A stretch of 64,000 nucleotides of DNA, taken from the NCBI GenBank assembly GCA_903895255.1, contig CAITTG010000035.1, forward strand, positions 26,714 to 90,713, given 5' to 3'. The position numbers and the translations under genes are program-made. Shown piece by piece: positions 2,872-62,349 of this stretch. The notes beneath the pieces are model-generated. The model was not told the origin of the DNA and searched no databases. It saw only the letters and a list, made by a program, of their open reading frames with translations. This DNA is from an uncultured Verrucomicrobia subdivision 3 bacterium (lineage in GTDB: Bacteria > Verrucomicrobiota > Verrucomicrobiia > Limisphaerales > UBA11358). Every line of letters begins with the position of its first letter. Positions within the stretch are counted from its first letter, which is position 1.

Positions 2872-2887
2872 TCTCCGTTTATCCCAG

Positions 2888-2925
2888 CGGCGGCGGCTCT
2901 CTTCCCGAGACCGCCGCCGTTTTTT
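2888..2925 (+). terminator. Rho-independent terminator
   Basis: Stem CGGCGGCGG (2888-2896) / CCGCCGCCG (2911-2919) followed by TTTTTT (2920-2925), 17 nt after the stop codon. Confidence 0.7.
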
Positions 2926-3010
2926 GTGTCCGTGGCTGGCGGTTGCCATTTCGCAACCGGCTCCACGATCCGTCACTTCCACCGGCCATTCCCGCCTCCA
3001 ACCGGCGGCA

Positions 3011-3040
3011 TTGACACATCCCTGATTAGGAGCCTATACT
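3011..3040 (+). promoter_or_regulatory. Sigma70-like promoter for the encapsulin operon
   Basis: TTGACA (3011-3016), 18-nt spacer, TATACT (3035-3040). This implies a leader of roughly 260 nt before the ATG at 3305. Confidence 0.45.
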
Positions 3041-3304
3041 AACACCTATCAATCGGTTGGTCCGAGAGCGGAGAGACTGCCAAGTTATCCGCCCGGGCAA
3101 AGCCTGCCGCATTGATTTCTTAGCCAACTGACCGGTCAACCGGAGGTTCGCACAAAATGCCCTGCATTTATGTGGAACAACTGCGTTTGCATTGATCGGT
3201 TCGCCAGCCCGGAAAAGCCTCTTTCCGGTGCTGTGACTGTCCCATGCCAGTTAATCCTCAGGGTGCGCGCGTATCGTTCCTTTTAACCTCCCCCCATTAA
3301 ATAT

Positions 3305-8190: not shown

Positions 8191-8323
8191 TATGCCGCGT
8201 ATTTGATTAAACCATGCACATATTTATGGCATAATCCATGCATCCTGGCAATGGCGGGAATTAATGGTCCTGCAAAGGTAATCCGTTGCCAAGGCTTTCG
8301 GGCGTATCCGCGCCGATCCGAGA

Positions 8324-9511
8324 TTACACCCTGGCTGGCAAATGCTTTCGCACCCATTCCCCATCCGCCAGCTTTAACAACTTCTCCCCCGCCGCCCGCA
8401 GCGTCTCCTCCTTCTTCGCAAAATGAAACCGGATGAACCGGTGCTCGGGTTCGCGGAAGAAGCTCGACCCCGGAACACCGGCGACGCCGACTTCACGGAC
8501 GAACCACTCGGCGGCCTCCGTATCCTTGGTGAAGCCCAGCGGCGAGATATCCACCATCACATAATAGGCCCCTTGCGGTTCCGTGAAGCGCAGGCCGGTT
8601 CGGCGCAGGCAATCCAGAAACACCGCGCGCTTGGCGGTGTACACATCGCGCAGGCCGGCATAATAACTGTCCGGCAGTTCCAAGCCCGCCACCGCTGCCT
8701 CTTGCAAGGGCGCGGCCGCCCCCACCGTCAGAAAATCATGCACCTTGCGCGCCTGGGCAATGATCGCCGGGGCCGCATGCACATACCCCAGCCGCCAGCC
8801 GGTGATGGAGTAGGTTTTGGACAGGGAATTGCAAGTGATCGTGCGTTCCGCCGCCCCCGGCAGGCTGGCACAGTAAACGTGTTCGTGCGGCGCGTAGACG
8901 ATGTGTTCGTACGGTTCGTCCGTGATGACGAAGGCGTCATGCCGCTCCGCCAGCGCCAGAATCTCCAGCAATTCCGCGCGGGTAAACACCTTGCCGGTGG
9001 GATTCGAGGGATTGCAGACGATGATGGCCTTGGGCTTTTGCGCAAAGGCGCGGGCCAGTTCGGCCGAATCAAACCCAAAATCCGGCGCGTGCAGCGGCAC
9101 ATAAATCGGGATGGCTCCGGAGAGGATCGCATCCGCCGCGTAATTTTCGTAGAAGGGGGAAAATACAATGACGCGGTCGCCCGGATTGCACGCCGTCATC
9201 ATCGCCACCATCATGGCCTCGGTGCTGCCGCAGGTCACCACCAGATGCTGGTCCGGGTCCACGGGCAGGCCGGTGAAGCGCGTGATTTTCCGCGCCAGCG
9301 CCGCGCGAAACCGGGGTGCGCCCCAGGTGACCGCATACTGGTGAAACGGTCCGCGCGTGGCCCTTTCCAAGGCGGATAAGAGTTCCTCCGGCGGATCAAA
9401 ATCGGGAAAACCCTGGGCGAGATTAATGGCATGGTGACGGGTGGCAAGACGCGTCATCCCGCGAATCACCGATTCGGAAAACGCTGCAAGTCGGGTGGCC
9501 GGTAATGGCAT
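8324..9511 (-). CDS. Pyridoxal-phosphate-dependent aminotransferase, class I/II (YbdL/kynurenine-oxoglutarate type)
   Basis: 395 aa. Motifs INLAQGFPDF, CNPSNPTGKV, SLSKTYSITGWRLGY (PLP Lys), IRFHFAK. Confidence 0.9.
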   Translation of the reverse strand: MPLPATRLAAFSESVIRGMTRLATRHHAINLAQGFPDFDPPEELLSALERATRGPFHQYAVTWGAPRFRAALARKITRFTGLPVDPDQHLVVTCGSTEAMMVAMMTACNPGDRVIVFSPFYENYAADAILSGAIPIYVPLHAPDFGFDSAELARAFAQKPKAIIVCNPSNPTGKVFTRAELLEILALAERHDAFVITDEPYEHIVYAPHEHVYCASLPGAAERTITCNSLSKTYSITGWRLGYVHAAPAIIAQARKVHDFLTVGAAAPLQEAAVAGLELPDSYYAGLRDVYTAKRAVFLDCLRRTGLRFTEPQGAYYVMVDISPLGFTKDTEAAEWFVREVGVAGVPGSSFFREPEHRFIRFHFAKKEETLRAAGEKLLKLADGEWVRKHLPARV

Positions 9512-9612
9512 AGGTTTTAAGTTTTAGGCCGGTATCATCGGTAAATCCGGGCGATTTGTCGAACGACAAAATTTTTTTAAAATTGTTTGACAGCGTGTCG
9601 TCATGGTGATTA

Positions 9613-12979: not shown

Positions 12980-14509
12980 TCAAACCAGATGCCGCGCCTG
13001 GCGCTTTGGCAGCGTACGCGCGGGCTTGGCACCCGGCGCTGGTCCCGCGGGCAGGAACTCTTTCATAAAGCCGGGTTTGTCGAAGCGGCCCCCGTTTTGG
13101 TAATCGCGCCAGAGCGTTTCCGCGGCCAGTTTGGGGTCCAGCGCGAGTTCGTCGGTCAGGTATTCAAACAGCAATTCCATCAGCCGCACCAGGTTGATGC
13201 TGTCAGTGCGGCCCAGCCGGGCGTAGAGCCAGTCGCTCCAGCGCAGGAAGGCATGGAAGGGGGAGGCCGCCGAATGCCAGATCAGGGGCGTGGCGTGGCG
13301 GAAATTACCACTGTTGCCCACGGTATCCCAGTATTTGGCGAAGCGCCGGAGCCGTTGCATGGCTGGGAAATCAATCAGGCGGTTGCACAGAATCTCGTAG
13401 GGCGGTTGCGGATGCCACGTCAGGCCCCATTCCGCATCGTGGCGGATGATGGGGGTGCCGCGCAGCCGTTTGAGGATGCCCACCTGGATTTCTTGCGGGC
13501 CGAGGGCGATGAGACGGTCAAAGCCGGCCGCAAAACTTTCCAGCGTTTCCCCGGGCAGCCCCACAATGAGGTCGGCATGGATGTGCACCCCGGTGTGCTG
13601 GCGCAAGTAGGTGAAATTATCTTGAAGTTTCGCGTAGTTCTGCCGCCGGCTGATCAACTGCCCCACCGCCGGATTAAACGTCTGGATGCCCACCTCAAAT
13701 TGCAACATGCCGGGCGGAAACCGGGCGATGATTTCCCGCAAGTCCTCGGGCAGGCGGTCGGGGATCATTTCGAAGTGGAAGAAATGGCCGGGCTGGCTGC
13801 GTTCCAGCAGAAATTCCAGAATGGTCCGGCTGACGGCGACATTGAGATTAAACGTGCGGTCCACAAACTTGAACTGTTTGAGCCCGCGATCCAGCAGTTG
13901 CTGGAGTTGCTCCAGCAGGACGGGGAGGGGCACGGCCCGCACGGGAACATCCAGTGACGACAGACAGAATTCGCAGGTGAACGGGCAGCCGCGTGAGGCC
14001 TCAATGTAAACAATGCGATGGGCGATATCCTCCGCGCGATAGAACGAATACGGCAGGGTGAGCCGCGCGAAGTCGGGCAGTTCGGCGGCGATGATCTTGG
14101 GCAAGGGCGGTCCATCGCTCAACAATCCCGCGCACACTTCGGCGAATTTCAGATCCGCCTCGCCCGTGATGACATGGTCCGCGAGCTGGACGATGGCCTG
14201 GCCGTCGGTTTCGTAACTGACTTCCGGTCCGCCCAGGATGATTTTAATATCCGGCTGAATGCGGCGGATGGCGGCGATAACCGTAGTGGTGGGTTCGACA
14301 TTCCAAATATAAATCCCAAAGCCGATAATTTTCGGCCGGTGCGCCAGGATGGCTTCCACGATGTCCAGCGGCCGCTGGTTGATGTCAAATTCCACCAGGG
14401 TGGCGCGGGCTTGCAACGGGCCGAGGTTGGCCAGCAGGTAACGCAAACCAAACGCCGCATGGATGTATTTGGCGTTGAGGGTGGTTAAAAGAATGTCGGC
14501 CACCCGCAA
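12980..14509 (-). CDS. B12-binding-domain radical SAM protein (DUF4080-type C-terminus)
   Basis: 509 aa. N-terminal cobalamin-binding-like domain, then the radical SAM cluster motif ASRGCPFTCEFCLSS. Confidence 0.9.
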   Translation of the reverse strand: MRVADILLTTLNAKYIHAAFGLRYLLANLGPLQARATLVEFDINQRPLDIVEAILAHRPKIIGFGIYIWNVEPTTTVIAAIRRIQPDIKIILGGPEVSYETDGQAIVQLADHVITGEADLKFAEVCAGLLSDGPPLPKIIAAELPDFARLTLPYSFYRAEDIAHRIVYIEASRGCPFTCEFCLSSLDVPVRAVPLPVLLEQLQQLLDRGLKQFKFVDRTFNLNVAVSRTILEFLLERSQPGHFFHFEMIPDRLPEDLREIIARFPPGMLQFEVGIQTFNPAVGQLISRRQNYAKLQDNFTYLRQHTGVHIHADLIVGLPGETLESFAAGFDRLIALGPQEIQVGILKRLRGTPIIRHDAEWGLTWHPQPPYEILCNRLIDFPAMQRLRRFAKYWDTVGNSGNFRHATPLIWHSAASPFHAFLRWSDWLYARLGRTDSINLVRLMELLFEYLTDELALDPKLAAETLWRDYQNGGRFDKPGFMKEFLPAGPAPGAKPARTLPKRQARHLV

Positions 14510-16934: not shown

Positions 16935-17213
16935 ACGCGGAACAAGCTAAGCAAAACTGGGTTGGGGAGCAAGTCCGGTAAAAATTTTTAACATTTGCTG
17001 ATTTCGGCAAGCCATTTGCTGTAGTAAGGTCGTGTCCAATAGGTATGGTTAAGCTTTGGCTGGCATTACAGTTGACAAATTGGGTAAATGAGCCAATAAC
17101 GGATTGAAAGCTGGGTTTGGTGCCGGGTGCCCAAACCAACAGAAAAAACATGGTGCCGGACTGGATGTTTTTATTTAATCAGGAAGTTCAAAAAACGACG
17201 AATCGTTCATAGT

Positions 17214-18650
17214 ATGTTAAAAAATTATTCGCTCAACGGCGGGTTTGATGAAATGATTGACGCCCAGAGCGGGGTGCGACCGCACTACCGGAAGTTTCAA
17301 GAATTGTTCAGCACAATGACGCCCATGGAGTTTGAGGCCAAGCGCCAGGCGATTGATGCCGCCTTTCTGCGCCAGGGGGTCACCTTTAATGTCTACGGCG
17401 ATTCCCAAGGCGCGGAGAAAATCTTCCCTTTTGACCTGCTGCCCCGGATCATACCTGCCAAGGAATGGGAGCATTTGGAGCGCGGTCTGGCGCAGCGCAT
17501 CACCGCCCTGAACCTGTTCCTGCATGATATTTATCATGATCAGAAAATCCTGAAGGACGGAGTGATTCCGGAATTCTATGTGCTTTCCGCCCGCCATTTC
17601 CGCCGGGAATTTGTGAATTTTGAAGTGCCCAAGGGTATCTATATACACATTTGCGGCACGGATTTGATCCGGGACAAGGATGGCAATTACCTGGTGCTGG
17701 AGGATAATGGGCGCTGTCCCTCCGGCGTGAGTTATGTTTTGGAAAACCGCCGGGCCATGAAGCGGGCGTTTCCGCAAATGTTTGAGGGAGTGGGGGTGCA
17801 GTCGGTGGAGAATTATCCCCAGGAATTGCTCAAGAGCCTCCGTTACATCGCCCCCGCCGGGGTGGATGATCCCACAGTGGTGCTGCTGACCCCCGGGGTT
17901 TATAACAGTGCTTATTTTGAGCATACCTACCTGGCGCGGCAGATGGGTATTGAAATTGTGGAGGGCCGCGATTTGCTGGTGCGCAATTCCCGTGTGCTGA
18001 TGCGCACAACGAAGGGCTTGAAACCGGTGCATGTGATTTACCGGCGCATTGATGACGATTTTATTGATCCCACGGTGTTCCGCCGCGACTCGATGCTCGG
18101 CGTGCCGGGCCTCATTAATGCCTACCGGGCCGGCAATGTTTCCCTGGCCAATTCCATTGGCACGGGCATCGCGGACGACAAGGTGATGTATTATTTTGTG
18201 CCGCGCATGATCAAGTATTATCTCGATCAGGAACCCATCCTGCCCAATGTGCCCACGTTCCTGGCGAGCGAGCCGACCGACATGAAGTACATCATGGAAC
18301 ACCTGCCGGAGTTGGTCGTCAAGGCGGCCAACGAATCCGGCGGTTACGGCATGCTGATGGGACCCAAGGCTTCCAAGGCGGAAGTGGAGGCCTTCCGCGA
18401 ACGCATTATTGCGGAACCCCGCAATTACATTGCCCAGCCGATGATTTTCCTGTCCCAACACCCGACTTATTGCGACGATACCTTTGATGGCCGCCATGTG
18501 GATCTGCGCCCGTTTATCTTGTCTGGCGAGCGCATCAGCATTATCCCCGGCGGTTTGACCCGGGTGGCGTTGCGCAAGGGCTCGCTGGTGGTGAACTCCT
18601 CGCAGGGCGGGGGGAGCAAAGACACCTGGGTTTTGTATGGCGATGAATAA
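17214..18650 (+). CDS. Circularly permuted type-2 ATP-grasp protein (COG2308 family)
   Basis: Trimmed to the ATG at 17214 ([16 protein letters not shown]...). Conserved blocks [58 protein letters not shown]. First gene of the ATP-grasp/alpha-E/transglutaminase triad. Confidence 0.9.
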
Positions 18651-44369: not shown

Positions 44370-45902
44370 ATGACCATGGCTTTCGTCACCAAACGGTCTT
44401 GCCGGGCATGGCCATGGCTGGGTGTGCTCGGCATGCTCGTGGTCCGGACGTCGGCGCAGGTTCCCGATTTTTCCCTCGTGCAGCAACGGTGGTTTGAAAC
44501 GCGCACCGCGCATTTTCACATCTACAGTTGCGGCACGCCGCAAGCCGTTTTCAAACTGGCCGGGCGGTTGGAACAGTTTTGCAAGGCCTATGGCCAGCTG
44601 GCCGGAACCCAGGCCATCGATTCGCCACCGATTGCAGTGATGGCGTTTCCGGACCACGCGAGCCTGACCCCATTCCTGCCGTTGTATGAAGGACAGCCGG
44701 CGAATCTGGCCGCCTTCTTCATGCGCGGCTCGGATGAGAATCTCATTGTGCTGTCGCTGCCCGAGGCGGACGCCGGGGACAATGACATGGCGGTGATCTT
44801 TCACGAATACACCCATTTATTATTCCGCCACAACTCCCGCTTCTGGCCGGTCTGGTTGCAGGAGGGCATGGCTGAGGTTTACTCCACCTTCACCACCAGG
44901 GAGGGCGCCGTGACCATCGCCGGCCCCATTCCGCATCATCTTGAGTTGTTGCAACAGACGCCACTCATGCCGCTTTCTGAGTTGTTCGCCGTGAAGCATG
45001 ACTCGCCGCAATACAATGAAAGCAGCCGCCAGGGGATTTTTTACGCGGAATCCTGGCTGCTCGCGGAATTTCTGGCGGCGGGCGACCAGCCGGCGCTCCG
45101 CGCGCGCTTTGGTCAGTACACGGTGCGGCTCCGGCAGGGCGAGAATGCCGAGGAGGCCTTCACGAATGCCCTGCGCATCAGCCTGCCGGGCATGGAGGCG
45201 CAACTCCGGCGCTATCTGGCCGATGGAGTGTTTCCGCCCCTCCAACTGCGGGTGGCTGGCAGCCTTGGCGCGCCCGTCAGTTTCACGACCCGCCCCGTGA
45301 CCCCGGTGGAAATTTATTTCCGGCTGGGCGATGAGTTGCTGCGGATCGACCGGCTGGACGCCGCCGGCGCATTTTTTGACGCCGCGCTAAAACTGGCGCC
45401 GGCCAGTCCGCTGCCTTATGAGGGCAAAGGGATGGTGGCCGCCCAGGCGGAGAATTCGGCGGAAGTCCTGCCGGAATTAACCGCCGCCCTGCAACGCGGA
45501 TCGAAAAGCTTTCTGGCTTATTTTATTTACGCCCGGGAACGATACCGGCAGACGGCCGAGGGGGACAAGTACGGGCCCATCAAGGGCGACACGGCCGCGG
45601 AGGTGTATAATGATTTGCAGAAATCTCTCAGTCTCATGCCCCAGTACGCGCCGGCGCATGAACTGCTGGGCTTTTTTGAGATGGTTCAGGGTAACGATCC
45701 GGAGGACGCCGAAAAGCAGTTGCAATGGGCCATTCAGCTGGAGCCGGAAAATGACTCCTATCTCTTTACTCTCGCCCAATTCCAATTTCGCACCGGTGCC
45801 TCCGAGGCGGCCCGCCAGACCCTGGAGCCGTTGTTGAAACCCAATGTGGACGCGGAATTACGCGAGCATGCCCAGACCCTCATTCAGGAGAACAGTCATT
45901 AA
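44370..45902 (+). CDS. Peptidase-MA-like (DUF1570-type HExxH) protein with C-terminal TPR repeats
   Basis: 510 aa. Signal peptide, HEYTHLLF plus EGMAEVYS zincin-like motifs, and TPR-like helical repeats in the C-terminal half. Confidence 0.8.
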   Translation: MTMAFVTKRSCRAWPWLGVLGMLVVRTSAQVPDFSLVQQRWFETRTAHFHIYSCGTPQAVFKLAGRLEQFCKAYGQLAGTQAIDSPPIAVMAFPDHASLTPFLPLYEGQPANLAAFFMRGSDENLIVLSLPEADAGDNDMAVIFHEYTHLLFRHNSRFWPVWLQEGMAEVYSTFTTREGAVTIAGPIPHHLELLQQTPLMPLSELFAVKHDSPQYNESSRQGIFYAESWLLAEFLAAGDQPALRARFGQYTVRLRQGENAEEAFTNALRISLPGMEAQLRRYLADGVFPPLQLRVAGSLGAPVSFTTRPVTPVEIYFRLGDELLRIDRLDAAGAFFDAALKLAPASPLPYEGKGMVAAQAENSAEVLPELTAALQRGSKSFLAYFIYARERYRQTAEGDKYGPIKGDTAAEVYNDLQKSLSLMPQYAPAHELLGFFEMVQGNDPEDAEKQLQWAIQLEPENDSYLFTLAQFQFRTGASEAARQTLEPLLKPNVDAELREHAQTLIQENSH

Positions 45903-45942: not shown

Positions 45943-46254
45943 TTAGCCGGCAATCGCGCTCATTTCCACCGGTTCCACATTCACACCCGTTTTTTCGAGC
46001 CATTCCACCGCGGCCTGCACGTCATCCCGCTTGCCATCCAGTTCGAGGCAGACCACACCAATTTCATCAGTAACACTTGCCTGGCGGATATTGGTAACCA
46101 CATTAAATTTATGGCCCAGTTTCCAAATGAGCGGTTCTTTAATCAGCTTCGGCGGGTACATCAGCCATAGACGTTGACGGTTTGGGGACAGACCGGTGGT
46201 GGGCGCGGCCTTGGCTTTGGCTTTGGTTTTTTTGATGGTCGGGGCTTTGGCCAT
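45943..46254 (-). CDS. NIL-domain (ferredoxin-fold) protein
   Basis: 103 aa. LIKEPLIWKLGHKFNVVTNIRQASVTDEIGVVCLELDGKRDDVQAAVEWLEKTGVNVEPVE fits the NIL domain pattern. Last gene of the riboswitch-controlled operon. Confidence 0.75.
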   Translation of the reverse strand: MAKAPTIKKTKAKAKAAPTTGLSPNRQRLWLMYPPKLIKEPLIWKLGHKFNVVTNIRQASVTDEIGVVCLELDGKRDDVQAAVEWLEKTGVNVEPVEMSAIAG

Positions 46255-46276
46255 AATTTTATCTGGTTGGCGATTT

Positions 46277-46552
46277 CTAGCCGCCGGCGATGGCCGGGAT
46301 GATGCTGATTTCGTCGCCGTCCTTCAGGGGTGTGGCGCGGTTTTGCAGGAAGCGGATGTCCTCCTCGTTCACGTAGACATTGACGAAGCGGCGGACCTCG
46401 CCTTTTTCATCCACGAGCCGTTCCTGGATGCCCGGGAAACGGGTCTGCAATTCGATGATGGCATCGCCGATGGTGGCGGCGTTAACCTCAATGAGCTCCT
46501 CGTTGTTGGTCAACTTGCGGAGCGGCGTGGGGATGCGAACGTTTTTTGGCAT
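46277..46552 (-). CDS. ThiS/MoaD-family sulfur-carrier protein
   Basis: 91 aa ending ...DGDEISIIPAIAGG (C-terminal Gly-Gly). Confidence 0.85.
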   Translation of the reverse strand: MPKNVRIPTPLRKLTNNEELIEVNAATIGDAIIELQTRFPGIQERLVDEKGEVRRFVNVYVNEEDIRFLQNRATPLKDGDEISIIPAIAGG

Positions 46553-46622
46553 AAATTTATCTTGAGTTCATTGGAATGTTACCGCAAGCGTTTTCGCTGC
46601 GCCAACAGGCTGGTTAGGGCGA

Positions 46623-47879
46623 TTAAACCCCCACCTTTTCCTCCTGCGACAGCAGGGCCTCAAACTCGCGCAGGCTGGGTTTAATCTCGCGCGGCTTGCC
46701 ACAATGACCCTGCACGGCATCCAGCGTTTTCAAACCGTTGCCGGTCACGCAAATCACGGCCGAGGAATCGCGCGCAATTTTGCCGGAGGCAATCAACTTC
46801 TTCGCCACCCCCACGGTCACGCCGCCGGCGGTCTCGGCAAAAATGCCCTCGGTCTCGGCCAGCAGCTTGATCGCATCGCGGATTTCATCATCCGTCACAT
46901 CCTCGGAAGCCCCGGCGGTTTCACGCATCACTTTGAGCGCATAAAAACCGTCGGCCGGGGTGCCGATGGCCAGTGACTTGGCAATCGTGTCCGGCTTGAC
47001 GGGCTTGAAGAAATCCAGCCCGGCTTTTTGGGCTGTGGAAATGGGCGAGCAACCGGTCGCCTGGGCGCCGTGGACGTGTACTTCACTCTCGTTTACCAGG
47101 CCGAGCTTCACAAATTCCTGATAGCCCTTGTGGATTTTGGTCAGGAGCGAGCCGGAGGCCATCGGGATGATGGTGTGCTGCGGCAGGCGCCAGCCCAGTT
47201 GCTCGGCAATTTCATACGCCATGCTCTTGGAGCCTTCGGCGTAATAGGGCCGCATATTGACGTTCACGAAGGCCCAGCCAAACTTGCCCGCGATCTCCGC
47301 GCACAAGCGGTTCACCTCGTCGTAATGACCTTTGATGGCAATCACGTTGGCCCCGTAAACCAGCGAATTCAAAATCTTGCCCTGCTCCAAATCCGACGGG
47401 ATGAACACGTAGGATTTCAGACCCACGCTGGCAGCGTTGGCCGCCACGGAATTGGCCAGATTGCCCGTCGAGGCGCACGCCACGGTTTCGAAGCCCAGTT
47501 CGCGCGCCCGGCTCAGGGCCACGCTTACCACGCGGTCTTTGAAGGAGAGCGTCGGATAATTGACGGCGTCATTCTTGATCCACAACTCCCGGATGCCCAA
47601 TCGCTTGGCCAGGCGGTCAGCCTTGATCAACGGCGTGTAACCCACCTGCACCCCCACGGTCGGATCCTTGGCCACCGGCAGGAGCTCCCGGTAACGCCAC
47701 ATGGTTTTGGGCCGCGATTCGATGGCTGCGCGCGTGAGCGACTTTTTGATGCGGTCGTAATCATAGGCCACCTCGAGCGGACCGAAGTCGTACTCGCAAA
47801 CATGGGTCGCGGTGAGCGGATATTCCCGGCCGCACTCGCGGCATTTCAAGGCCTTCATGAAACCATCGTGCTTTTCCAT
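46623..47879 (-). CDS. Threonine-synthase-family PLP enzyme (ThrC-like; candidate homocysteine synthase)
   Basis: 418 aa. N-terminal CRECGREY zinc-ribbon-like motif, PLP-lysine motif PTLSFKDR, GNLANS. Preceded by a SAM-I riboswitch. Confidence 0.9.
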   Translation of the reverse strand: MEKHDGFMKALKCRECGREYPLTATHVCEYDFGPLEVAYDYDRIKKSLTRAAIESRPKTMWRYRELLPVAKDPTVGVQVGYTPLIKADRLAKRLGIRELWIKNDAVNYPTLSFKDRVVSVALSRARELGFETVACASTGNLANSVAANAASVGLKSYVFIPSDLEQGKILNSLVYGANVIAIKGHYDEVNRLCAEIAGKFGWAFVNVNMRPYYAEGSKSMAYEIAEQLGWRLPQHTIIPMASGSLLTKIHKGYQEFVKLGLVNESEVHVHGAQATGCSPISTAQKAGLDFFKPVKPDTIAKSLAIGTPADGFYALKVMRETAGASEDVTDDEIRDAIKLLAETEGIFAETAGGVTVGVAKKLIASGKIARDSSAVICVTGNGLKTLDAVQGHCGKPREIKPSLREFEALLSQEEKVGV

Positions 47880-47938
47880 AATATTTATTTCTCAGCTTCA
47901 GCCGGGGTTTGCCGGCTGGTTTTTGACGCGGGGCCAAC

Positions 47939-47973
47939 AAAAAAGGCCCCGACTCATGAGTGAGAAGGGGCCT
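47939..47973 (-). terminator. Riboswitch expression-platform terminator
   Basis: Minus-strand stem GGCCCC / GGGGCC followed by TTTTTTG, between the aptamer and the ATG at 47879. Confidence 0.75.
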
Positions 47974-47989
47974 ACAAAATATGCGTGCT

Positions 47990-48112
47990 CTTCTCATTTT
48001 TCCCGAACGCACCCGCATTCAGGCTGGATTTGGCACCTGCGTTAAAACCGAAGTCTTAACCGGTTGCCGTGGCTTCATCGGGCCAGTCCCTCTGCCACTC
48101 TGCATGAGATTC
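47990..48112 (-). promoter_or_regulatory. SAM-I (S-box) riboswitch aptamer
   Basis: The minus strand reads UCUCAUGCAGAGUGGCAGAGGGACUGGCCCGAUGAAGCCACGGCAACC...GGUGCCAAAUCCAGCC...AAAAUGAGA. It contains the invariant GAGGGA, UGGCCCGAUGAA, GGCAACC and GGUGCYAAAUCCAGC blocks and a closing P1 (UCUCAU/AUGAGA). Confidence 0.9.
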
Positions 48113-48221
48113 GTTGTATCAACGAATGCGGATAAAATGATGCATGGGGCGGTGAGTGTCAAATTTAATTTTGCGAACCAGGCTATCCGCCGGACCGGGC
48201 GCGGTAAGCGGAATTAATCCC

Positions 48222-50241: not shown

Positions 50242-51444
50242 ATGACGGCCAAACCCACTCCCGACAGCGGCAAGGGTGACCTTGCCCGGAAATTTCTGAA
50301 AGCCACCAGCGACCTGGTGTTTCACCATGTCCACGGCAGCCAGCTCATTTATAATACCTGCTGGGAGGATCCCCGCCTGGACCGCCAGTTGATGCAGTTG
50401 GATGCCAGCAGCAAGGTGGTGATGATTACTAGCGCCGGTTGCAACGCGCTGGATTACCTGCTCGACGGCCCGGCCGAAATTCATACCGTCGATGTCAATT
50501 TCCGTCAAAACGCGCTGTTGGAACTCAAGCTGGCCCTCCTGCGCCGGGGCAAATTTATGGACTTCTTTGAGTTCTTCGGCATCGGCTCCCACAGCGACAA
50601 CGCGGCCATTTACAAATCGCTAAAAAAGGATCTGCCCGAGTTCGCCCGCAAATTTTGGGACGGCCACCTGCACTTTTTCAACCCAGGTGGCATCAAGAAA
50701 TCTTTCTATTATCACGGTACCTCCGGCGCGGCCGCCTGGCTGCTGGGGGGCGTCCTCTTCAAGGCCAAACCCAACATCAAAAATTTCGCAATGTGCCTGC
50801 TGGATGCCAAGACCCGGGAGGAACAGAAGGAGATTTACGCCCTGTTGGAACCCAAAATCTGGGGCAATCTCAGCAACTGGCTCATCCGCCAGCGCATGGT
50901 CATGACCTTGCTTGGCGTTCCGGGACCGCAGATAAAACTGATTGAGGACTCCTATCCCGGCGGCTTGGAAAGTTACATCAAGGACAAACTCCGTCATGTC
51001 ATGACGGAACTGCCCGCCACCGACAATTATTTCTGGCGGGTGTACATCACCGGTTCCTACACCATGGATTGCTGCCCGAATTATCTGCGCCGGTCCCATT
51101 TTGCGACGCTGCAAGAGCGCAGCGGGCGCATCCAGACGCACACCAGCACGTTAAGCCAGTTTCTCCAGCAGCATCCCGGAACCTACAGTCATTATGTGTT
51201 GCTGGACCATCAGGACTGGCTGGCCTGGCACGATGCCGCCGCACTCTTGGAAGAGTGGGAACTCATCCTGGCCAACAGCCGTCCCGGCACCAAAATCCTC
51301 ATGCGTTCCGCCGGACTGGACCTGAGTTTTGTCCCGCCCACCGTGCTGAAGCGCCTGCGCTTCTTCCCCAAAATCACCGAGCCGATGCATCTCACCGACC
51401 GGGTGGGCACTTACGGCAGCCTGCATTTTGCTGAAGTTCTATGA
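50242..51444 (+). CDS. btaA: BtaA-like S-adenosylmethionine:diacylglycerol 3-amino-3-carboxypropyl transferase (DUF3419)
   Basis: 400 aa. YNTCWEDPRLDRQ, ITSAGCNALDYLL and NYFWRVYITGSY fit DUF3419/BtaA. ATGA start/stop overlap with the following methyltransferase. Confidence 0.8.
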   Translation: MTAKPTPDSGKGDLARKFLKATSDLVFHHVHGSQLIYNTCWEDPRLDRQLMQLDASSKVVMITSAGCNALDYLLDGPAEIHTVDVNFRQNALLELKLALLRRGKFMDFFEFFGIGSHSDNAAIYKSLKKDLPEFARKFWDGHLHFFNPGGIKKSFYYHGTSGAAAWLLGGVLFKAKPNIKNFAMCLLDAKTREEQKEIYALLEPKIWGNLSNWLIRQRMVMTLLGVPGPQIKLIEDSYPGGLESYIKDKLRHVMTELPATDNYFWRVYITGSYTMDCCPNYLRRSHFATLQERSGRIQTHTSTLSQFLQQHPGTYSHYVLLDHQDWLAWHDAAALLEEWELILANSRPGTKILMRSAGLDLSFVPPTVLKRLRFFPKITEPMHLTDRVGTYGSLHFAEVL

Positions 51445-52130
51445 GCACGGGTGCCAACAGACCCGCACCGGCGGCGAAACTCACGCCCATTGAAAAATAC
51501 TACCGGTTGCATGCGCGCATTTATGATGCGACGCGCTGGACTTTCTTATTCGGACGCACCGCCATATTGGTGGATATCGCCGCCTTGACCAAGCCCGTGC
51601 GGATTTTGGAAGTGGGGTGTGGCACCGGCAAAAATCTGGCGAGCCTTTGCCAGCGGTTTCCGCAGGCTGCGATTACCGGCCTCGATCTCTCCGAGCAAAT
51701 GCTCGCGGTTGCGCGACGGAAAACCGCTCATTACGGCTCGCGTGTCGGCTTCCTGCACCGGGCGTATGATGCGCCGCTCGGAGATTTGGCGGGGTACGAT
51801 CTCATTCTCTTCTCCTACGCGCTCTCCATGTTCAACCCGGGTTTTGAAACGGCCATTCAGGCGGCGGCGGCGGACCTGGCTCCGGGCGGTTACCTGGCCG
51901 TGGTTGATTTTCATGCCACCCGCTTTCCAGCGTTTGAACGCTGGATGGGGGTCAACCATGTGCGCATGAACGCCCAGTTGCGCCCGTTGTTGCAGGCGCA
52001 ATTCGCCCCGCAACTCGACCGGGTGGACCACGCTTACGGCGGTGTCTGGCAATACCTCACCTTCATTGGTCGCAAAAAAAACCGCCCGTTGATTCACGGC
52101 CGCGATACAAACGGATTGCCCCGCTCGTAG
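51441..52130 (+). CDS. btaB: Class I SAM-dependent methyltransferase, BtaB-like
   Basis: 229 aa. ILEVGCGTGKNL motif I. Translationally coupled to the btaA-like gene. Confidence 0.7.
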   Translation: MSTGANRPAPAAKLTPIEKYYRLHARIYDATRWTFLFGRTAILVDIAALTKPVRILEVGCGTGKNLASLCQRFPQAAITGLDLSEQMLAVARRKTAHYGSRVGFLHRAYDAPLGDLAGYDLILFSYALSMFNPGFETAIQAAAADLAPGGYLAVVDFHATRFPAFERWMGVNHVRMNAQLRPLLQAQFAPQLDRVDHAYGGVWQYLTFIGRKKNRPLIHGRDTNGLPRS

Positions 52131-52652: not shown

Positions 52653-55274
52653 TTATTGCCCGTTGCATTCGCAGGTCGCAAAGGCGCGGCGGCCATCCGG
52701 CCAGGCGGCTTCCGCTTCCACCCAGTTGGGGACGGGCCCGCTGGCTTGCCAGATCCAGGTTGCGCCCACGCGGGGCTCCTGGCCCACAGCCTCCCAGACC
52801 ACGCTGGCTTGGCTCAAATCCATTCCTGGGACCGTCAGGCTTAGCCGGAGCGGCATGCCGGTGGTTGCATGGGCCGGCACCCCCAGAATGTTCGCGGGAG
52901 CGCAGCGCCAGGTTTGATTGGTCAGGGATGTTTGCGTCATTAAGAACACCATCGTGGCCAGGGTTCGCGTCTGGTCCACCACCACAGCCTCGGTCTTGGT
53001 GTTGAAACTTTCCCCCCAGCGGTCGTACAGCGGATAGGGTGCCTGCTTGAGCCCGTCGGAGGGAAACGTCACGGACCCCAATTGCCGGCCATAGTTATTG
53101 AGATATTGAAAGCCATCCACGACGTCTCCAACCAGCAAGCCGGTGGGCGGCAGGCGGCGGCGGCTGTTCAGTGCGAACTGGCTGACCAGTTCCCGTTGCG
53201 GATGGTGGCCCAGGCCGGTGACGTAACACACATTCACCGGATTGTTGCCGAGTTCGTAATTCACATTGGCCAGGATGGCCCGCAGCCATTCCGGTCGATG
53301 GTCCAGCTCCCAGCCCACGGCCAGATCAAAGGCGTGGCTGCTGGAAAAATACCAGCCGGCTGACATGAAGCGCTTCGACGCTTCCGGAAAACTCGTCCCG
53401 TAAGCGCACTCCTCCGAGTACTTGCACTCGTCCGCGGCACACTCTTTGATTTCCTCCTCGCACCGCGCCAGATAAGACCTGTCCAGCCGGCTGGCCGGCA
53501 ACCGGCCGCTCCGGGCCGCGAAGGCATAACTGCGTATCGCGCACCCATAACCCTCAAACATCCGGTCCCAGGACCAATGCCGGGTTTTGGGGTCCGCCGG
53601 ATCAAAATGCGCCTGCAAATCCTGTTCGTAATTGGGATCGCCAGTGGCCAGGAACAATTCGGTGGCCGCCCACGCCAGCTCATCATCGTGGATGAACATG
53701 TCCCCGTAATGGGTGATTTTCTGGTAGGCCCCGTCCCGGCCATGGGCGGCGATGGCCCGTTGTAAAAACTGCCAGCCCCGCAATGCCGTGCGTTCATAGT
53801 TGGCCGCGGCTTCGGGAAATTCCCGCCGGAAAGTGGGCGAGGACCCCAATTGCGCCAGTGCCGCCACCGCCGCCGCCGTGGCGGAGGTGTTTTTCGGATA
53901 AACTACCTGCGGATCTCCCTGGTCCGGCGGCACGTTGTCCTCGTATTTCCGGTTGCGGGGATACACCATGAAATAGAATCCGCCGTCCGCATCTTGCAAT
54001 TTTGCCAGATAATCCGCCTCCCATTTCGCTTCCTGCAGCAGGTCGCTTCGGCCATCGCCGCTCTCCGGCAAGCCCAGGTTGTCCAGTACGGACGCGCCGG
54101 GAAAGTTATCCACCGCGAACACCAGGAAGTGAATCATCTCCGCGCTATCAATGGTATATTTGCTGTAATCCCCCGCGTCGTGATGCCCGCCCGCCACCTC
54201 CAACGGACCCGGATTCACAAATGGATACAAGCTGGCCGCCACCCCCTTGAGCAGGGGGGCGGTGTGGCGGGGATTCTTCTTCGCGTCCCAGGTCAACCCG
54301 GCCAGGATGTGTTCCACCGCGGGGAAGTCCGGGGTGGGTACCATTGCTGGATTGGTGTGGCAAACCCCATGCGTAAACCGGGTGAACGGCAGTTCCAAGG
54401 CGGTGCCGCACCGCTGATGGTATAATCCCAGTGCCACGGTGCGCGCCCAATTCGCCGCCGCGCCTTCGTTAATCGCAAACTCCTCCGAGGCCCCCAGTCC
54501 CGGCACGACCAGGCGATAGTGTCCGGTGTTGGTCACCGAGCTAAAATCCGCCGACCAGACTTTTTGGTATGGCGTTGGCCGGATGGTGAAGCCCCGGTCC
54601 GGCCGGGCCTGCAACTGGCCGCTCAGCACCGCTCTGCCCGTGTCCGATGCGATGACTTGAAAGGTCTTTTCCCCCGGCCAGACCAGTTCGCCCCGGCTGC
54701 CCAGATAATACCCCACCATCGCGATTTTGGGGAATTGCGGCACATAGCCGGTTTGATTGATGTGAATGGCCGGACTCCACCGGAGCGGGTCCGTGTCCGC
54801 TAGGAAGCGGATGGACTGGTCCCAGAGTTGTCCGTCGGGGTTAGTCACCTGCACGGGAACGCCGGCGGGCAGGGGATGGGTCAGCCGCAGATACAGCCAG
54901 TTGCCCAGCCGCAGGTCCCGGGGAGCGAGTGGTGCATACACCGCGCGGCGTTTAAAACCCACCTCCACCACCGAAATTTCCTGGTCCCCGGCCCGCACTT
55001 GGAAGGCGCTGGAAGCGGGCATTCTGGGCGTGCCATTGGTTCCAACAAAATCCCACACCCCATCCCCCGGGCCAGCTGCGGGACGCGTGGTGATGAGTGT
55101 GAGTTCGAGCCACTCCGGGGTGAGCACCCGGAGCCGGTAGTCGCCGACTTGGGGCAATTGCAAGCGGGTCGCTTCCGCGTCGGTCAGTTCGGAACCGGCA
55201 AAGGTCTGACTGGCCAGAACTAACACCAGACTTAGGATGGTGACGATGGTTAAAGTAATCTTAATGGTCGGCAT
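52653..55274 (-). CDS. Secreted glycoside hydrolase family 9 protein with N-terminal Ig-like (CelD_N-type) domains
   Basis: Trimmed to the ATG at 55274 (MPTIKITLTIVTILSLVLVLASQTFA signal). GH9 motifs GGHHDAGDYSKYT, DADGGFY, YVTGLG. Confidence 0.85.
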   Translation of the reverse strand: MPTIKITLTIVTILSLVLVLASQTFAGSELTDAEATRLQLPQVGDYRLRVLTPEWLELTLITTRPAAGPGDGVWDFVGTNGTPRMPASSAFQVRAGDQEISVVEVGFKRRAVYAPLAPRDLRLGNWLYLRLTHPLPAGVPVQVTNPDGQLWDQSIRFLADTDPLRWSPAIHINQTGYVPQFPKIAMVGYYLGSRGELVWPGEKTFQVIASDTGRAVLSGQLQARPDRGFTIRPTPYQKVWSADFSSVTNTGHYRLVVPGLGASEEFAINEGAAANWARTVALGLYHQRCGTALELPFTRFTHGVCHTNPAMVPTPDFPAVEHILAGLTWDAKKNPRHTAPLLKGVAASLYPFVNPGPLEVAGGHHDAGDYSKYTIDSAEMIHFLVFAVDNFPGASVLDNLGLPESGDGRSDLLQEAKWEADYLAKLQDADGGFYFMVYPRNRKYEDNVPPDQGDPQVVYPKNTSATAAAVAALAQLGSSPTFRREFPEAAANYERTALRGWQFLQRAIAAHGRDGAYQKITHYGDMFIHDDELAWAATELFLATGDPNYEQDLQAHFDPADPKTRHWSWDRMFEGYGCAIRSYAFAARSGRLPASRLDRSYLARCEEEIKECAADECKYSEECAYGTSFPEASKRFMSAGWYFSSSHAFDLAVGWELDHRPEWLRAILANVNYELGNNPVNVCYVTGLGHHPQRELVSQFALNSRRRLPPTGLLVGDVVDGFQYLNNYGRQLGSVTFPSDGLKQAPYPLYDRWGESFNTKTEAVVVDQTRTLATMVFLMTQTSLTNQTWRCAPANILGVPAHATTGMPLRLSLTVPGMDLSQASVVWEAVGQEPRVGATWIWQASGPVPNWVEAEAAWPDGRRAFATCECNGQ

Positions 55275-55335
55275 CCTAAACCGGCCGGGGTGGCTTGCCA
55301 AGGCGGTTGCTTGGCCAGTTGATGCGCCCGCTGCC

Positions 55336-60135: not shown

Positions 60136-60711
60136 CTAATGGCCAATAAGTGAGGTTTTTTCCGTAATCACCTTCGTCATCGGCACATCATGCGGTTCCG
60201 CCGGAACTTCCCGCAGGATTTGCTCACGCAGGGCCACGCCGCATTTCATTCCGCCAAAGCCACGCAGCAACTGGTCGTAAAACCCCTTGCCCCGGCCTAA
60301 CCTCCGGCCAGAGGCATCAAAAGCCAAACCGGGTACCAAGGCGAGTGCAATTTCCCCCAGCGTAACTTCGGAGCAATGCGGCGCGGGCTCGCGGATACCA
60401 AATTCTCCGCTGACCAGGTCGCGCGCTAAATCGCCGACCGAGGCGATGGCGTAACGGTTTTCCCGGGCATCAAAGCGGGGCAGGGCCACGATCTTACCTT
60501 CCGCCAAGGCGGCGGCCACCAGCGGCCAGACATCCACCTCGTCCGGCAGCGGGGCAAAGAGCAGCACCGTTTTCGCTGATTTCCAAAAAGCTTGCGCCCG
60601 CACCTGTTCGCAAATCCGCGCCGACCCGCTGGCGCGTTCGGCTGCGGTCAGGCATTTCAAGCGCGCGCGCATTTCTCGTCGTAGTTCGGCTTTGGCCTCG
60701 GATACTGTCAC
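60136..60711 (-). CDS. 5-formyltetrahydrofolate cyclo-ligase
   Basis: Start set at the GTG at 60711, which forms a GTGA overlap with the rarA stop. LVPGLAFDASGRRLGRGKGFYD is the family signature. Confidence 0.85.
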   Translation of the reverse strand: MTVSEAKAELRREMRARLKCLTAAERASGSARICEQVRAQAFWKSAKTVLLFAPLPDEVDVWPLVAAALAEGKIVALPRFDARENRYAIASVGDLARDLVSGEFGIREPAPHCSEVTLGEIALALVPGLAFDASGRRLGRGKGFYDQLLRGFGGMKCGVALREQILREVPAEPHDVPMTKVITEKTSLIGH

Positions 60712-62081
60712 GGTTGCTTTCCCTCCCGGGCTTTGGCAAATTCCGCGCGCCACACCTCCAGGCGATCTTTGATTTTCTTTTCCACGCCTTGCGCGGTGGG
60801 CTCGTAATAGCGTTTGGCGGCGCCCAGATAATCCTGCGCCACGAAATGGCCCGCGCCTTCGTGGGCGTATTGATAGCCCTGGCCATGGCCCAGCCGTTCC
60901 GCGCCGGGGTAATGGCCGTCCCGCAAATGTTCCGGCACCGCCAGCGTCCGGCCCGACTTCACGTCCGCCAGCGCGGCGTCGATGGCGGTGATGACGCTGT
61001 TGCTCTTGTGGGCGGTCGCTATATAAATCGCCGCCTCGGCGATGGGTATGCGCGCCTCGGGCCAGCCGGTGAATTCCGCCGTTTGATGCGCGGCCACCGC
61101 CAGCACCAAGGCCATCGGGTCCGCGAGGCCCACATCCTCGGCTGCGCAGATCAGGATCCGCCGGGTGATGAAGCGTGGGTCCTCCCCGGCGTGAATCATC
61201 TTGGCCAGCCAGTAGAGTGCGGCGTCCGGGTCGCTGCCGCGCATGGATTTGATGAAGGCGGAAATGGTGTCGTAATGCGCGTCGCCGTCGCCATCGTAGA
61301 CCACGGCTTTTTTCTGGATGCTCTGCTCGGCGGTCGCCAGGTCCACGACGACAAAGCCGTCCGCGCCGGGCGGGGTCGTGAGGGCGGCGATTTCCAGCGA
61401 GTTCAGCGCCTTGCGCGCGTCGCCATCCGCCAGCCGGGCCAGGTGGCGCAGGGCATTTTCGTGGGCGTTGATTTTTAAATAACCCAGGCCGCGCTCGGTG
61501 TCTGCCAGCGCCCGCTGCAAGAGGGCCAGCAAATCGTCCTCGCCCAGCGGGCGCAGCTCAAAGATTTGTGAGCGTGACACCAGCGGGGCGTTGACGAAGA
61601 AAAAGGGATTGTGCGTGGTGGCGCCGATGAGGCGGATCACGCCGCTTTCCACATCCGGCAGCAGCACGTCCTGCTGGGCCTTGTTGAAGCGGTGGATTTC
61701 ATCGATGAAAAGAATCGTGCGCGCGCCGGTGTTTTCGAGCCGGTTATGCGCGCCGGCCAGCACGCGGCGCATGTCGGCCACGTTGGATTCAACGCCGCTC
61801 AAACGCTCAAATTTACACTGCGTCTGCCGGGCGATGATCTGGGCCAGCGACGTTTTGCCGGTGCCGGGCGGGCCGTAAAAGAGCAGGGACTCGATGCGGT
61901 CCGCTTCGATGGCCCGCCGCAGCAATTGTCCGGGGCCGAGGATGTGCTGCTGGCCGGCATATTCCGCGAGGTTGCGGGGTCGCATGCGGGCTGCCAGCGG
62001 GGCATGGCGGCGGTCCGCCCCGGCGGGGGGACCGGCAGGCTGCGCGGCCACGGGGGCCGCAAATAAATCATCTCGCGCCAT
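60708..62081 (-). CDS. rarA: Replication-associated recombination protein A (AAA+ ATPase)
   Basis: 457 aa. LFYGPPGTGKTSLA Walker A, FIDEIHRFNK, and MgsA C-terminal domain (YDTISAFIKSMRGSDPDAALYWLA). Confidence 0.9.
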   Translation of the reverse strand: MARDDLFAAPVAAQPAGPPAGADRRHAPLAARMRPRNLAEYAGQQHILGPGQLLRRAIEADRIESLLFYGPPGTGKTSLAQIIARQTQCKFERLSGVESNVADMRRVLAGAHNRLENTGARTILFIDEIHRFNKAQQDVLLPDVESGVIRLIGATTHNPFFFVNAPLVSRSQIFELRPLGEDDLLALLQRALADTERGLGYLKINAHENALRHLARLADGDARKALNSLEIAALTTPPGADGFVVVDLATAEQSIQKKAVVYDGDGDAHYDTISAFIKSMRGSDPDAALYWLAKMIHAGEDPRFITRRILICAAEDVGLADPMALVLAVAAHQTAEFTGWPEARIPIAEAAIYIATAHKSNSVITAIDAALADVKSGRTLAVPEHLRDGHYPGAERLGHGQGYQYAHEGAGHFVAQDYLGAAKRYYEPTAQGVEKKIKDRLEVWRAEFAKAREGKQP

Positions 62082-62164: not shown

Positions 62165-62349
62165 TTTAAAGAGACCCCACCATTGCCGTGTGCGACTGAC
62201 CCTTTGAACATGTTATAGTAACATGTGGAACCCCTCCGGCTGCTTTCGACTTCCAGTCAAGGCATGTCGGCCACAACCTAAAATTGGCTCCGGTGATCGT
62301 TTAATCTACGGTTCAAGGATTGTACGAATCACGAACAGGGCAGGGAAAT
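62165..62349 (-). ncRNA. ssrS: 6S RNA candidate
   Basis: The minus strand starts AUUUCCCUGCCCUGUUCGUG and ends ...GUUCAAAGGGUCAGUCGCACACGGCAAUGGUGGGGUCUCU. This parallels my recollection of E. coli 6S (AUUUCUCUGAGAUGUUCGC ... GUUCAAGGGUUACAGCCUGCGGCGGCAUCUCGGAGA). The 5' CCCUGCC pairs with the 3' GGUGGGG. About 185 nt. Lies in an AT-richer 450-nt gap upstream of rarA and 5-FTHF cyclo-ligase. The ends are approximate. Confidence 0.6.

Follow-up and report, generated by a model that had tools for sequence, protein, structure and literature searches.

A SAM-I riboswitch upstream of a predicted MetM/MetO-type homocysteine operon with a recurrent NIL-domain partner in an uncultured verrucomicrobial bacterium

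A stretch of 64,000 nucleotides (nt) from an uncultured Verrucomicrobia subdivision 3 bacterium (GenBank assembly GCA_903895255.1, contig CAITTG010000035.1; the whole stretch is hereafter called the window) was analysed, in which an S-adenosylmethionine (SAM) riboswitch of the SAM-I type precedes three genes on the minus strand. These genes encode MetM, a pyridoxal phosphate (PLP)-dependent homologue of threonine synthase (ThrC), MetO, a ThiS/MoaD-fold sulfur-carrier protein, and a small NIL-domain protein. Overall, the arrangement is best explained, with high probability, as a three-gene methionine operon under a transcriptional SAM-I OFF switch, and the core of this reading, namely the OFF switch over a MetM/MetO homocysteine operon regardless of what NIL does, is very highly probable. 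The initial annotation of this DNA had offered carrier-dependent homocysteine synthesis as a candidate reading; the MetM/MetO pathway itself has already been published and is not new. What is provisionally new is the recurrent NIL partner, sometimes fused to the carrier, which, judging from gene neighbourhoods, is a genuine third component of the metM-metO system in several phyla. The fuller clusters found in other phyla, with genes for an activating enzyme (E1) and a JAMM peptidase, are also beyond the known system.

Architecture of the operon and its leader

The features of the leader and the operon, listed in the direction of transcription, were the following (lengths of proteins in amino acids, aa):

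48117-48221, minus strand: leader upstream of the aptamer, probable promoter region (TTGACA at 48157-48162, CATTTT at 48134-48139)
47991-48110, minus strand: SAM-I (S-box) aptamer (RF00162, 83.5 bits with the gathering score at 44.4, E 3e-18, covering the model in full from position 1 to 108)
47961-47996, minus strand: antiterminator alternative, pairing UGAGAAG (47990-47996, 3′ strand of P1) with CUUCUCA (47961-47967, 5′ flank of the terminator)
47937-47973, minus strand: intrinsic terminator, GGCCCC...GGGGCC hairpin (47944-47973) followed by U6-G-UU
46623-47879, minus strand: metM, PLP-dependent ThrC-like predicted O-phosphohomoserine-dependent homocysteine synthase, 418 aa (PALP PF00291, 234 bits)
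46277-46552, minus strand: metO, ThiS/MoaD-fold sulfur-carrier protein, 91 aa, ending in ...IIPAIAGG (ThiS PF02597, 65 bits)
45943-46254, minus strand: stand-alone NIL-domain protein, 103 aa (NIL PF09383, 44.3 bits vs. a cut-off of 24)

The whole window was scanned against Rfam, and two matches were found above threshold, SAM-I and a 6S RNA. The S-box aptamer that the initial annotation had read on the minus strand was thus confirmed by the covariance model, and the leader would be expected to bind SAM from its family membership. The intrinsic terminator proposed together with it was recovered by direct folding as a hairpin of -19.4 kcal/mol (z -4.3), with none of 200 shuffled sequences being equally stable; a generic terminator scan missed this hairpin because of its internal loop. 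Moreover, the UGAGAAG/CUUCUCA pairing was present in the minimum free energy (MFE) structure obtained for the unconstrained leader (-75.7 kcal/mol, z -3.3). The expression platform consists of a terminator and an antiterminator that are mutually exclusive and engage the 3′ strand of P1, as is required of the SAM-I family. As read from the sequence, this is the layout of a classical S-box leader, where a P1 stabilised by SAM would permit the terminator and an open P1 the antiterminator. At low SAM, the antiterminator would form between the 3′ strand of P1 and the 5′ flank of the terminator, and metM-metO-NIL would be transcribed. Once SAM is bound, P1 would close, and the terminator hairpin with its U6 tract would end transcription before metM.

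As a separate observation, GGGGCC, the 3′ arm of the terminator, has an alternative partner in another GGCCCC located 9 nt further downstream, the U-tract then lying in the loop. This alternative hairpin (47906-47944, minus strand) was seen in the MFE fold of the whole leader, and it may reinforce the read-through state or be a coincidence. Upstream of the aptamer, a perfect TTGACA and a weak -10 element (CATTTT) 17 nt downstream of it were read by eye with low confidence, and a sigma-70 consensus scan of the leader called no promoters. This sequence was found in DNA metagenome runs only (pond, freshwater and peat), and the search for transcript evidence returned zero RNA runs containing it.

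Downstream of the aptamer, the ThrC-like, Gly-Gly-ending ubiquitin-fold and NIL genes named in the initial annotation were all found in place, as three co-directional open reading frames (ORFs) with the codon-position G+C pattern of real genes. The metM stop and the metO start are separated by 70 nt, and metO and the NIL gene by 22 nt. Past the NIL gene lies a convergent gene for a TPR protein (44370-45902, plus strand), and upstream of the leader an RsgA-type GTPase gene ends at 48222, so that the three genes form a self-contained unit behind the riboswitch. Profile searches of the 64-kb window found neither a ThiF/MoeB-like E1 nor a JAMM peptidase, and the earlier claim that the operon lacks an E1, which must be encoded elsewhere, was correct on this scale. 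No other homocysteine genes were seen among the 36 window ORFs scanned, 64 kb being not informative on the remaining genome.

The recurrence of this arrangement was surveyed with a MetM profile searched over 1.84 billion cluster representatives, followed by alignment and a scan of one genome per GTDB species. A total of 80 metM loci were obtained (58-92% identity), spanning Verrucomicrobiota, Planctomycetota, Nitrospirota, Desulfobacterota-type lineages, Cyanobacteriota and others. Their metM upstream regions were surveyed with a covariance model built from six aptamers, and a SAM-I element was detected directly upstream of metM in 26 of these 80 other genomes. By group, it appeared in 17 of the 18 testable Verrucomicrobiota, in four Planctomycetota and in three Desulfobacterota-like genomes, and in none of the 32 cyanobacteria or the eight Nitrospirota. 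Furthermore, 20 of the 28 SAM leaders of metM loci had a hairpin of -10 kcal/mol or lower beside a T-run. Clean CCCCUUCUC-type terminators appeared mainly in Limisphaerales-like loci, the CCCCUUCUC...GGGG design being common to those Verrucomicrobiota leaders, and the CCCCUUCUC motif recurred in the leaders of related Verrucomicrobiota. A search of plasmid proteins returned mostly haloarchaeal and Bacillus thrC sequences (33-37% identity), which are outgroups, together with a locus of the actinomycete Nonomuraea that came from one mislabelled chromosome and comprised a SAM aptamer, metM (58% identical to that of the window) and metO, followed by unrelated genes.

The ThrC-like enzyme and its sulfur carrier

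MetM scored 284 bits against the NCBI thrC model TIGR00260 (cut-off 167) and 296 bits against PRK08197, slightly below the cut-off of 303. An alternative start at 47858 would give a 411-aa form, as in many homologues. The motif LSFKDR is present, and the PLP lysine K114 aligned to the SFKDR lysine of the solved ThrCs. At the N terminus, a CxxC...C knuckle (C13, C16 and C28) was found, whose fourth ligand is Asp31 in the window protein and Cys in most relatives; an extra N-terminal module of this CxxC...C type, about 55 residues long, is found in the MetM clade and not in solved ThrCs. Close homologues (88-94% identity) are all named 'threonine synthase' and belong to metagenome-assembled genomes (MAGs) of Verrucomicrobiota of the Limisphaerales/Pedosphaerales type. 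The close homologues came from soil, peat and fresh water MAGs, with homologues of the NIL protein reaching 94% identity.

A neighbour-joining tree was built from 334 aligned columns of 84 carrier-linked sequences and the solved ThrCs, with 40 bootstraps. The window MetM fell inside the carrier-linked clade (n = 84), which excluded the ThrCs of Aquifex, Thermus, Bacillus subtilis, Mycobacterium tuberculosis and Arabidopsis and a ThrC encoded in a Thermodesulfovibrio locus (L071) in 40 out of 40 bootstraps. The enzyme phylogeny by which the initial annotation had proposed to check its reading thus sets the carrier-linked enzymes apart from the five solved ThrCs and, together with carrier adjacency and the recurring riboswitch, supports the role that had been suggested, in methionine rather than threonine synthesis and of the MetM/MetO type. 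Moreover, a total of 27 positions were fixed to one residue in the MetM clade and to another in the solved ThrCs, and residues invariant in ThrC were replaced throughout the clade (in Thermus numbering, T88 by L, S155 by N, N157 by R, R160 by Y and Q164 by S). In Thermus ThrC, T88, S155 and R160 presumably bind the phosphate group by which the addition of water is steered during threonine synthesis, and the loss of their equivalents would fit a changed reaction specificity. Furthermore, locus L071 has a second PALP gene directly after metM-metO-NIL (1974-3101, plus strand), 68% identical to the closest solved ThrC, and the presence of a bona fide ThrC beside metM indicates that MetM is not the housekeeping threonine synthase.

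These results bear on the alternative that the first gene of the operon encodes a genuine threonine synthase or a threonine deaminase, with the carrier and NIL genes as unrelated neighbours. In its favour, the enzyme passes TIGR00260 and is a threonine synthase in public annotation, and the Microcystis homologue, about 60% identical to the window MetM, behaved in vitro as a threonine deaminase with weak threonine synthase activity (PMC12172450). However, it is opposed by the SAM-riboswitch control in 26 genomes, by the presence of a metO homologue right after metM in 76 of the 80 genomes, by the separate clade with its replaced ThrC-invariant residues and by the genuine ThrC in the same locus of L071. 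In addition, the MetM of Streptomyces albulus is given as a characterised homocysteine synthase in the summaries cited below, and we consider the threonine synthase alternative very improbable.

Regarding the carrier, MetO also matched the SAMP1 and moaD_arch models, and its identity to the Microcystis and Nonomuraea carriers is 59% and 49%, respectively. Its C-terminus, ...PA[IV]AGG, is strictly conserved across phyla. The window protein ends exactly at Gly-Gly, so that trimming of the Mec type should not be needed. Outside Verrucomicrobiota and cyanobacteria, many MetO proteins carry 1-8 residues after Gly-Gly, which parallels the maturation step by Mec listed by GapMind. E1 and JAMM genes are found inside the cluster in Nitrospirota and Desulfobacterota-type genomes, the full cluster of Nitrospirota comprising ThiF, MetM, MetO, NIL, ThiF and JAMM, and none of the 20 verrucomicrobial loci had a ThiF or JAMM gene beside the cluster. 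In an uncultured Actinomycetota (L083), MetO is fused at Gly-Gly to a ThiF domain in a 355-aa protein (8229-9296, plus strand; ThiF 292 bits, ThiS 57 bits); a stand-alone 80-aa NIL protein follows this fusion (9303-9545, plus strand), and a JAMM gene lies upstream.

A second alternative is that MetM uses free sulfide with O-phosphohomoserine, MetO and NIL being dispensable or purely regulatory here, which would explain why no E1 lies nearby. It agrees with the finding that ThiF and JAMM genes are neither in the window nor beside the cluster in the verrucomicrobial loci, and a sulfide donor was tried in the Microcystis study (PMC12172450). However, the strict conservation of the MetO C-terminus across phyla, the E1 and JAMM genes embedded in the Nitrospirota and Desulfobacterota-type clusters and the actinobacterial MetO-ThiF fusion all argue against it. 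Moreover, E1 enzymes such as MoeZ/MoeB commonly serve several carriers from a distant locus, and the free-sulfide alternative is accordingly rated as improbable.

The MetM/MetO route was reported from S. albulus (Hasebe 2024, Appl Environ Microbiol 90:e01247-24) and is taken here as summarised in the GapMind 2026 preprint and in PMC12172450. The parts given in the GapMind 2026 preprint are the MetO carrier, the MoeZ ligase and the Mec hydrolase, NIL not being among its steps, and MetM is said there to be often misannotated as threonine synthase; a further 2026 preprint repeats the assignment of MetM as homocysteine synthase. The metM gene of S. albulus has an upstream SAM riboswitch, and the Microcystis homologues are 51.6% identical to MetM (enzyme) and 47% to MetO (carrier) of that species (PMC12172450). 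The window operon is similar to the S. albulus system in having a ThrC-homologous PLP enzyme, a ThiS-like carrier directly downstream and an upstream SAM riboswitch, and by analogy it would also share O-phosphohomoserine as substrate and an external MoeZ-type E1. In contrast, it has NIL as a third gene, judging from the actinomycete locus inspected (Nonomuraea) and the GapMind steps, both of which lack NIL, and its MetO ends at Gly-Gly without any extension.

Two further systems offer precedents for carrier-dependent synthesis. In the CysO-CysM-Mec-MoeZ system of M. tuberculosis, the thiocarboxylate of a ubiquitin-fold carrier donates sulfur to an O-phospho amino acid through a PLP enzyme of fold type II, and the cycle is closed by a JAMM hydrolase and an E1; however, the product there is cysteine, made from O-phosphoserine by beta-replacement, CysM is not of the ThrC family, and neither NIL nor a SAM riboswitch is known to be involved. 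In the HcyS system of Wolinella succinogenes, homocysteine is made from a carrier thiocarboxylate, and a JAMM peptidase trims the residues after the Gly-Gly of the carrier precursor, which resembles the extended and fused MetO forms of other phyla. Unlike the window operon, that system relies on the fold-type-I enzyme MetY and O-acetylhomoserine instead of a ThrC-like enzyme and O-phosphohomoserine, and it is not known to include NIL. A 'protein thiocarboxylate pathway', to which this HcyS-HcyD-HcyF-MetY system corresponds, is mentioned in PMC5764234.

By analogy with the S. albulus MetM/MetO, CysO/CysM and HcyS/MetY precedents, from which the catalytic chemistry is inferred, the Gly-Gly end of MetO would be adenylated and thiocarboxylated by a ThiF/MoeZ-type E1 encoded outside the window. 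MetM, as a fold-type-II PLP enzyme derived from ThrC, would eliminate phosphate from O-phospho-L-homoserine and add the MetO thiocarboxylate at C-gamma. The release of homocysteine would be direct or, as in the CysO and HcyS systems, would follow an S-to-N shift with JAMM hydrolysis, and the product would then be methylated to methionine.

Some loci showed variations of the metM-metO arrangement. Tandem ThiS-like genes were found between metM and NIL in three Verrucomicrobiota (L012, 8030-8305; L013, 4437-4709; L015, 8275-8559), the extra copy scoring 105-120 bits vs. 141-149 bits. In ten loci, mostly of cyanobacteria (L029, L034, L040, L041, L044, L054, L057, L058, L065 and L070), a second, divergent ThiS-family gene (about 88 aa, PF02597 56 bits) was found upstream of metM besides the metO downstream. 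A Verrucomicrobiia MAG whose MetM is 88% identical to that of the window (L004) had the SAM aptamer and metM, and metO and NIL were not found in the 5 kb downstream, where an unrelated gene on the opposite strand was located instead; this may reflect loss, rearrangement or misassembly. Finally, in two close relatives, metM and metO are separated by additional sequence, a 155-aa ORF with an HSP70 Pfam match in L003 (7285-7752) and a gap of about 1.2 kb in L010 (1167-2413).

The NIL-domain protein as a third component

A NIL gene was present in 33 of the 80 metM loci. It was found in 15 of the 20 Verrucomicrobiota (14 beside metO and one elsewhere in the locus), in all eight Nitrospirota and in a scatter of other lineages, and it was found neither in the 32 cyanobacterial metM loci nor in that of the actinomycete Nonomuraea. 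The gene order MetO-NIL was fixed, and the flanks of the trio differed, as it was located after recR in one related contig and after an SMC gene in another, which indicates that metM-metO-NIL moves as a unit. A literature search, with the primary MetM/MetO paper outside its reach, returned nothing linking the NIL domain to a thiocarboxylate pathway or to MetM/MetO, and NIL is provisionally regarded as an undescribed component of this route.

In seven genomes, MetO and NIL were encoded by a single ORF of 171-190 aa, in which MetO, with its ...PAIAGG end kept, is followed by a linker of 5-20 residues and by NIL. These fusions appeared in one member of Syntrophaceae, two further Desulfobacterota/Thermodesulfobacteriota, Ca. 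Acidulodesulfobacterium, a Planctomycete and two unclassified genomes; a Prok-JAB/JAMM peptidase gene was present in all seven loci and a ThiF-type E1 in five of them. When a fusion was used as query in a database search, all the 120 matches listed (58-100% identity) contained both PF02597 and PF09383. Among these matches listed, the fusions were mostly 170-176 aa long (range 167-189) and, where named, were mostly called "MoaD family protein" or "molybdopterin synthase sulfur carrier subunit". G90 and G91 at the junction were invariant in 36 aligned fusions. An AlphaFold2 model of a natural MetO-NIL fusion gave a predicted local distance difference test (pLDDT) score of 90.9 and a predicted template modelling (pTM) score of 0.53, with a dip of confidence at the junction. 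The model fits two independent domains on a cleavable linker and speaks neither for nor against a fixed complex.

In the fused lineages, the JAMM peptidase encoded in the cluster would free MetO and NIL. A comparable case is MoaX of M. tuberculosis, a MoaD-MoaE fusion in which the fused ubiquitin-fold carrier precursor is cleaved at Gly-Gly. The MetO-NIL proteins resemble such precursors in their N-terminal carrier, in the Gly-Gly kept at the junction and in a downstream partner of the same pathway. Unlike MoaX, the partner is NIL, or a ThiF E1 in one actinobacterial genome, and the cleavage of the MetO fusions is a prediction. Near four fusion loci devoid of a SAM riboswitch (L024, L026, L028 and L060), an Rrf2-family regulator gene (PF02082, 141 bits) recurred, which may be an alternative regulator of these loci. 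The idea that NIL stands in for a missing riboswitch or JAMM gene was rejected, as Verrucomicrobiota have riboswitch and NIL, Nitrospirota have NIL and JAMM in the absence of a riboswitch, and all three are absent from cyanobacteria.

The AlphaFold2 model of the window NIL protein (pLDDT 74) consists of a disordered, Lys/Ala-rich N-terminal tail of about 25 aa with low confidence and an ACT-like beta-alpha-beta-beta-alpha-beta domain. In a Foldseek search against the PDB, the best seven matches were to the C2 domain of E. coli MetN (E 1e-4 to 9e-4, template modelling scores of 0.6-0.66), with ACT domains ranking lower, and the sequence profile also matched MetN C2 (3dhx; E 1.4e-6). MetN C2 (3dhw, 3dhx, 3tui and 3tuz) has the same fold and is the best match by both profile and structure; in contrast, it is the C-terminal regulatory module of an ATP-binding cassette (ABC) ATPase, while the window NIL, 103 aa long and with a basic N-terminal tail, is encoded as a separate protein in a biosynthetic operon. 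In MetN, the NIL (C2) domain mediates trans-inhibition by methionine. The Asn of the NI motif (N55) aligned to N295 of MetN, which we take to be a methionine-binding residue, and N55 was invariant in 19 verrucomicrobial homologues and in the 36 fusion proteins. N-I is followed by Arg or Lys in almost every member, invariantly in verrucomicrobial NIL and nearly so in the fusions, and by Ile in E. coli MetN.

On these likenesses, NIL would be a small ACT-like subunit with methionine, homocysteine or a related amino acid as its ligand, and it would tune or assist the MetO/MetM step as a feedback sensor or as a carrier adaptor. Ligand sensing is proposed tentatively and with less than even confidence. 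A more specific version, in which NIL is a methionine- or homocysteine-sensing gate on the carrier, whose ligand would control JAMM cleavage in the fusions or inhibit MetM, MetO or the E1 where the genes are separate, is unlikely. If true, such a gate would provide a second, protein-level feedback on top of the SAM riboswitch or replacing it, and it would set the first example of ligand control over the maturation of a ubiquitin-fold carrier in prokaryotes.

Alternatively, NIL could be a carrier adaptor or chaperone made 1:1 with MetO, to whose tail or thiocarboxylate it would bind or which it would connect with MetM or the E1. Fusion right after Gly-Gly guarantees equimolar synthesis, the Arg/Lys after the NI motif in place of the Ile of E. 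coli MetN could bind a carboxylate, and the order of both genes does not vary. In contrast, the fusion model lacks confident inter-domain packing, cyanobacteria and actinomycetes have metM-metO without NIL, and the only characterised function of NIL is, to our knowledge, amino-acid binding in MetN. The adaptor role is a rather unlikely explanation.

The possibility that NIL is a redox or persulfide relay delivering sulfur stems from the DUF39 pathway (MA1821/MA1822 and DvMF_1464/DvMF_0262), in which Methanosarcina and Desulfovibrio depend on NIL-ferredoxin proteins to make homocysteine; moreover, many homologues carry the JGI automatic annotation 'L-aspartate semialdehyde sulfurtransferase ferredoxin'. 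The link to archaeal NIL proteins drawn in the initial annotation held for the shared domain and did not extend further, as in those proteins NIL is fused to 4Fe-4S ferredoxin domains and works with DUF39 and COG2122 on aspartate semialdehyde, homoserine not being an intermediate, whereas here it is stand-alone or fused to a ThiS-fold carrier and lies beside a PLP enzyme. A Pfam scan of the 103-aa protein gave NIL as its single domain, ferredoxin being absent, and the 36 window ORFs scanned did not include a DUF39. Its sole Cys, C69, was invariant only within verrucomicrobial NIL, the aligned position in the fusions being Ala and sometimes Thr or Gly. The missing ferredoxin domain and the non-conserved Cys make a role like that in the DUF39 pathway unlikely; the persulfide relay was rejected because the cysteine is not conserved outside verrucomicrobial NIL proteins, and the relay explanation as a whole is given almost no weight.

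Returning to the reading of a riboswitch-controlled MetM/MetO operon with NIL as its third member, several points weigh against it. The orthology to S. albulus MetM is indirect only, through Microcystis (60%, then 51.6%) and Nonomuraea (58%), and the Microcystis homologue, besides the in vitro activities given above, did not raise methionine in vivo (PMC12172450). With the E1 and JAMM genes missing from the window, carrier activation is assumed here. Furthermore, the cyanobacterial and actinomycete loci devoid of NIL imply that NIL is not essential to the chemistry, and where it occurs is not explained in any simple way by the riboswitch, the JAMM gene or the C-terminal extensions of MetO.

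Implications for annotation and other features of the window

If the assignment is right, thousands of environmental genes belong to one methionine-biosynthesis module despite being labelled otherwise, the misleading names being "threonine synthase", "MoaD family protein", "methionine ABC transporter ATPase subunit" and "aspartate semialdehyde sulfurtransferase ferredoxin". When the module is not recognised, methionine auxotrophy would be mis-called in metabolic reconstructions of Verrucomicrobiota, Nitrospirota and related groups. MetM/MetO has been described as two genes plus generic helpers, and a third partner, repeatedly fused to the carrier, is a testable lead on regulation or carrier handling. 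In addition, the NIL domain would be tied to methionine metabolism in a third independent setting, besides the MetN importer and the DUF39 pathway.

Other features were observed in the window. A type 2A encapsulin shell protein (SrpI-like, PF19307, 372 bits) is directly followed by a 582-aa cysteine desulfurase (PF00266, 481 bits) with an N-terminal extension of about 200 aa (3305-5999, plus strand). This is a known desulfurase-encapsulin pair and belongs to sulfur metabolism, yet it is located 40 kb from metM; a second class-V aminotransferase and a hexapeptide transferase lie near it (1783-2871 and 6590-7507). At 50242-52130 (plus strand), the gene for a DUF3419 protein (338 bits) precedes one for a class-I methyltransferase, a pairing that presumably resembles BtaA/BtaB of betaine-lipid (diacylglyceryltrimethylhomoserine, DGTS) synthesis. 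The window also encodes a B12-binding radical SAM protein with DUF4080 (12980-14509, minus strand), a circularly permuted ATP-grasp protein (17127-18650, plus strand) and a GH9 cellulase with a CelD_N domain (52653-55301, minus strand). Finally, the 6S RNA (RF00013, 66 bits vs. 46.4) is located at 62170-62349 on the minus strand, just downstream of an MgsA-type AAA ATPase gene (60708-62081), and is unrelated to the operon.

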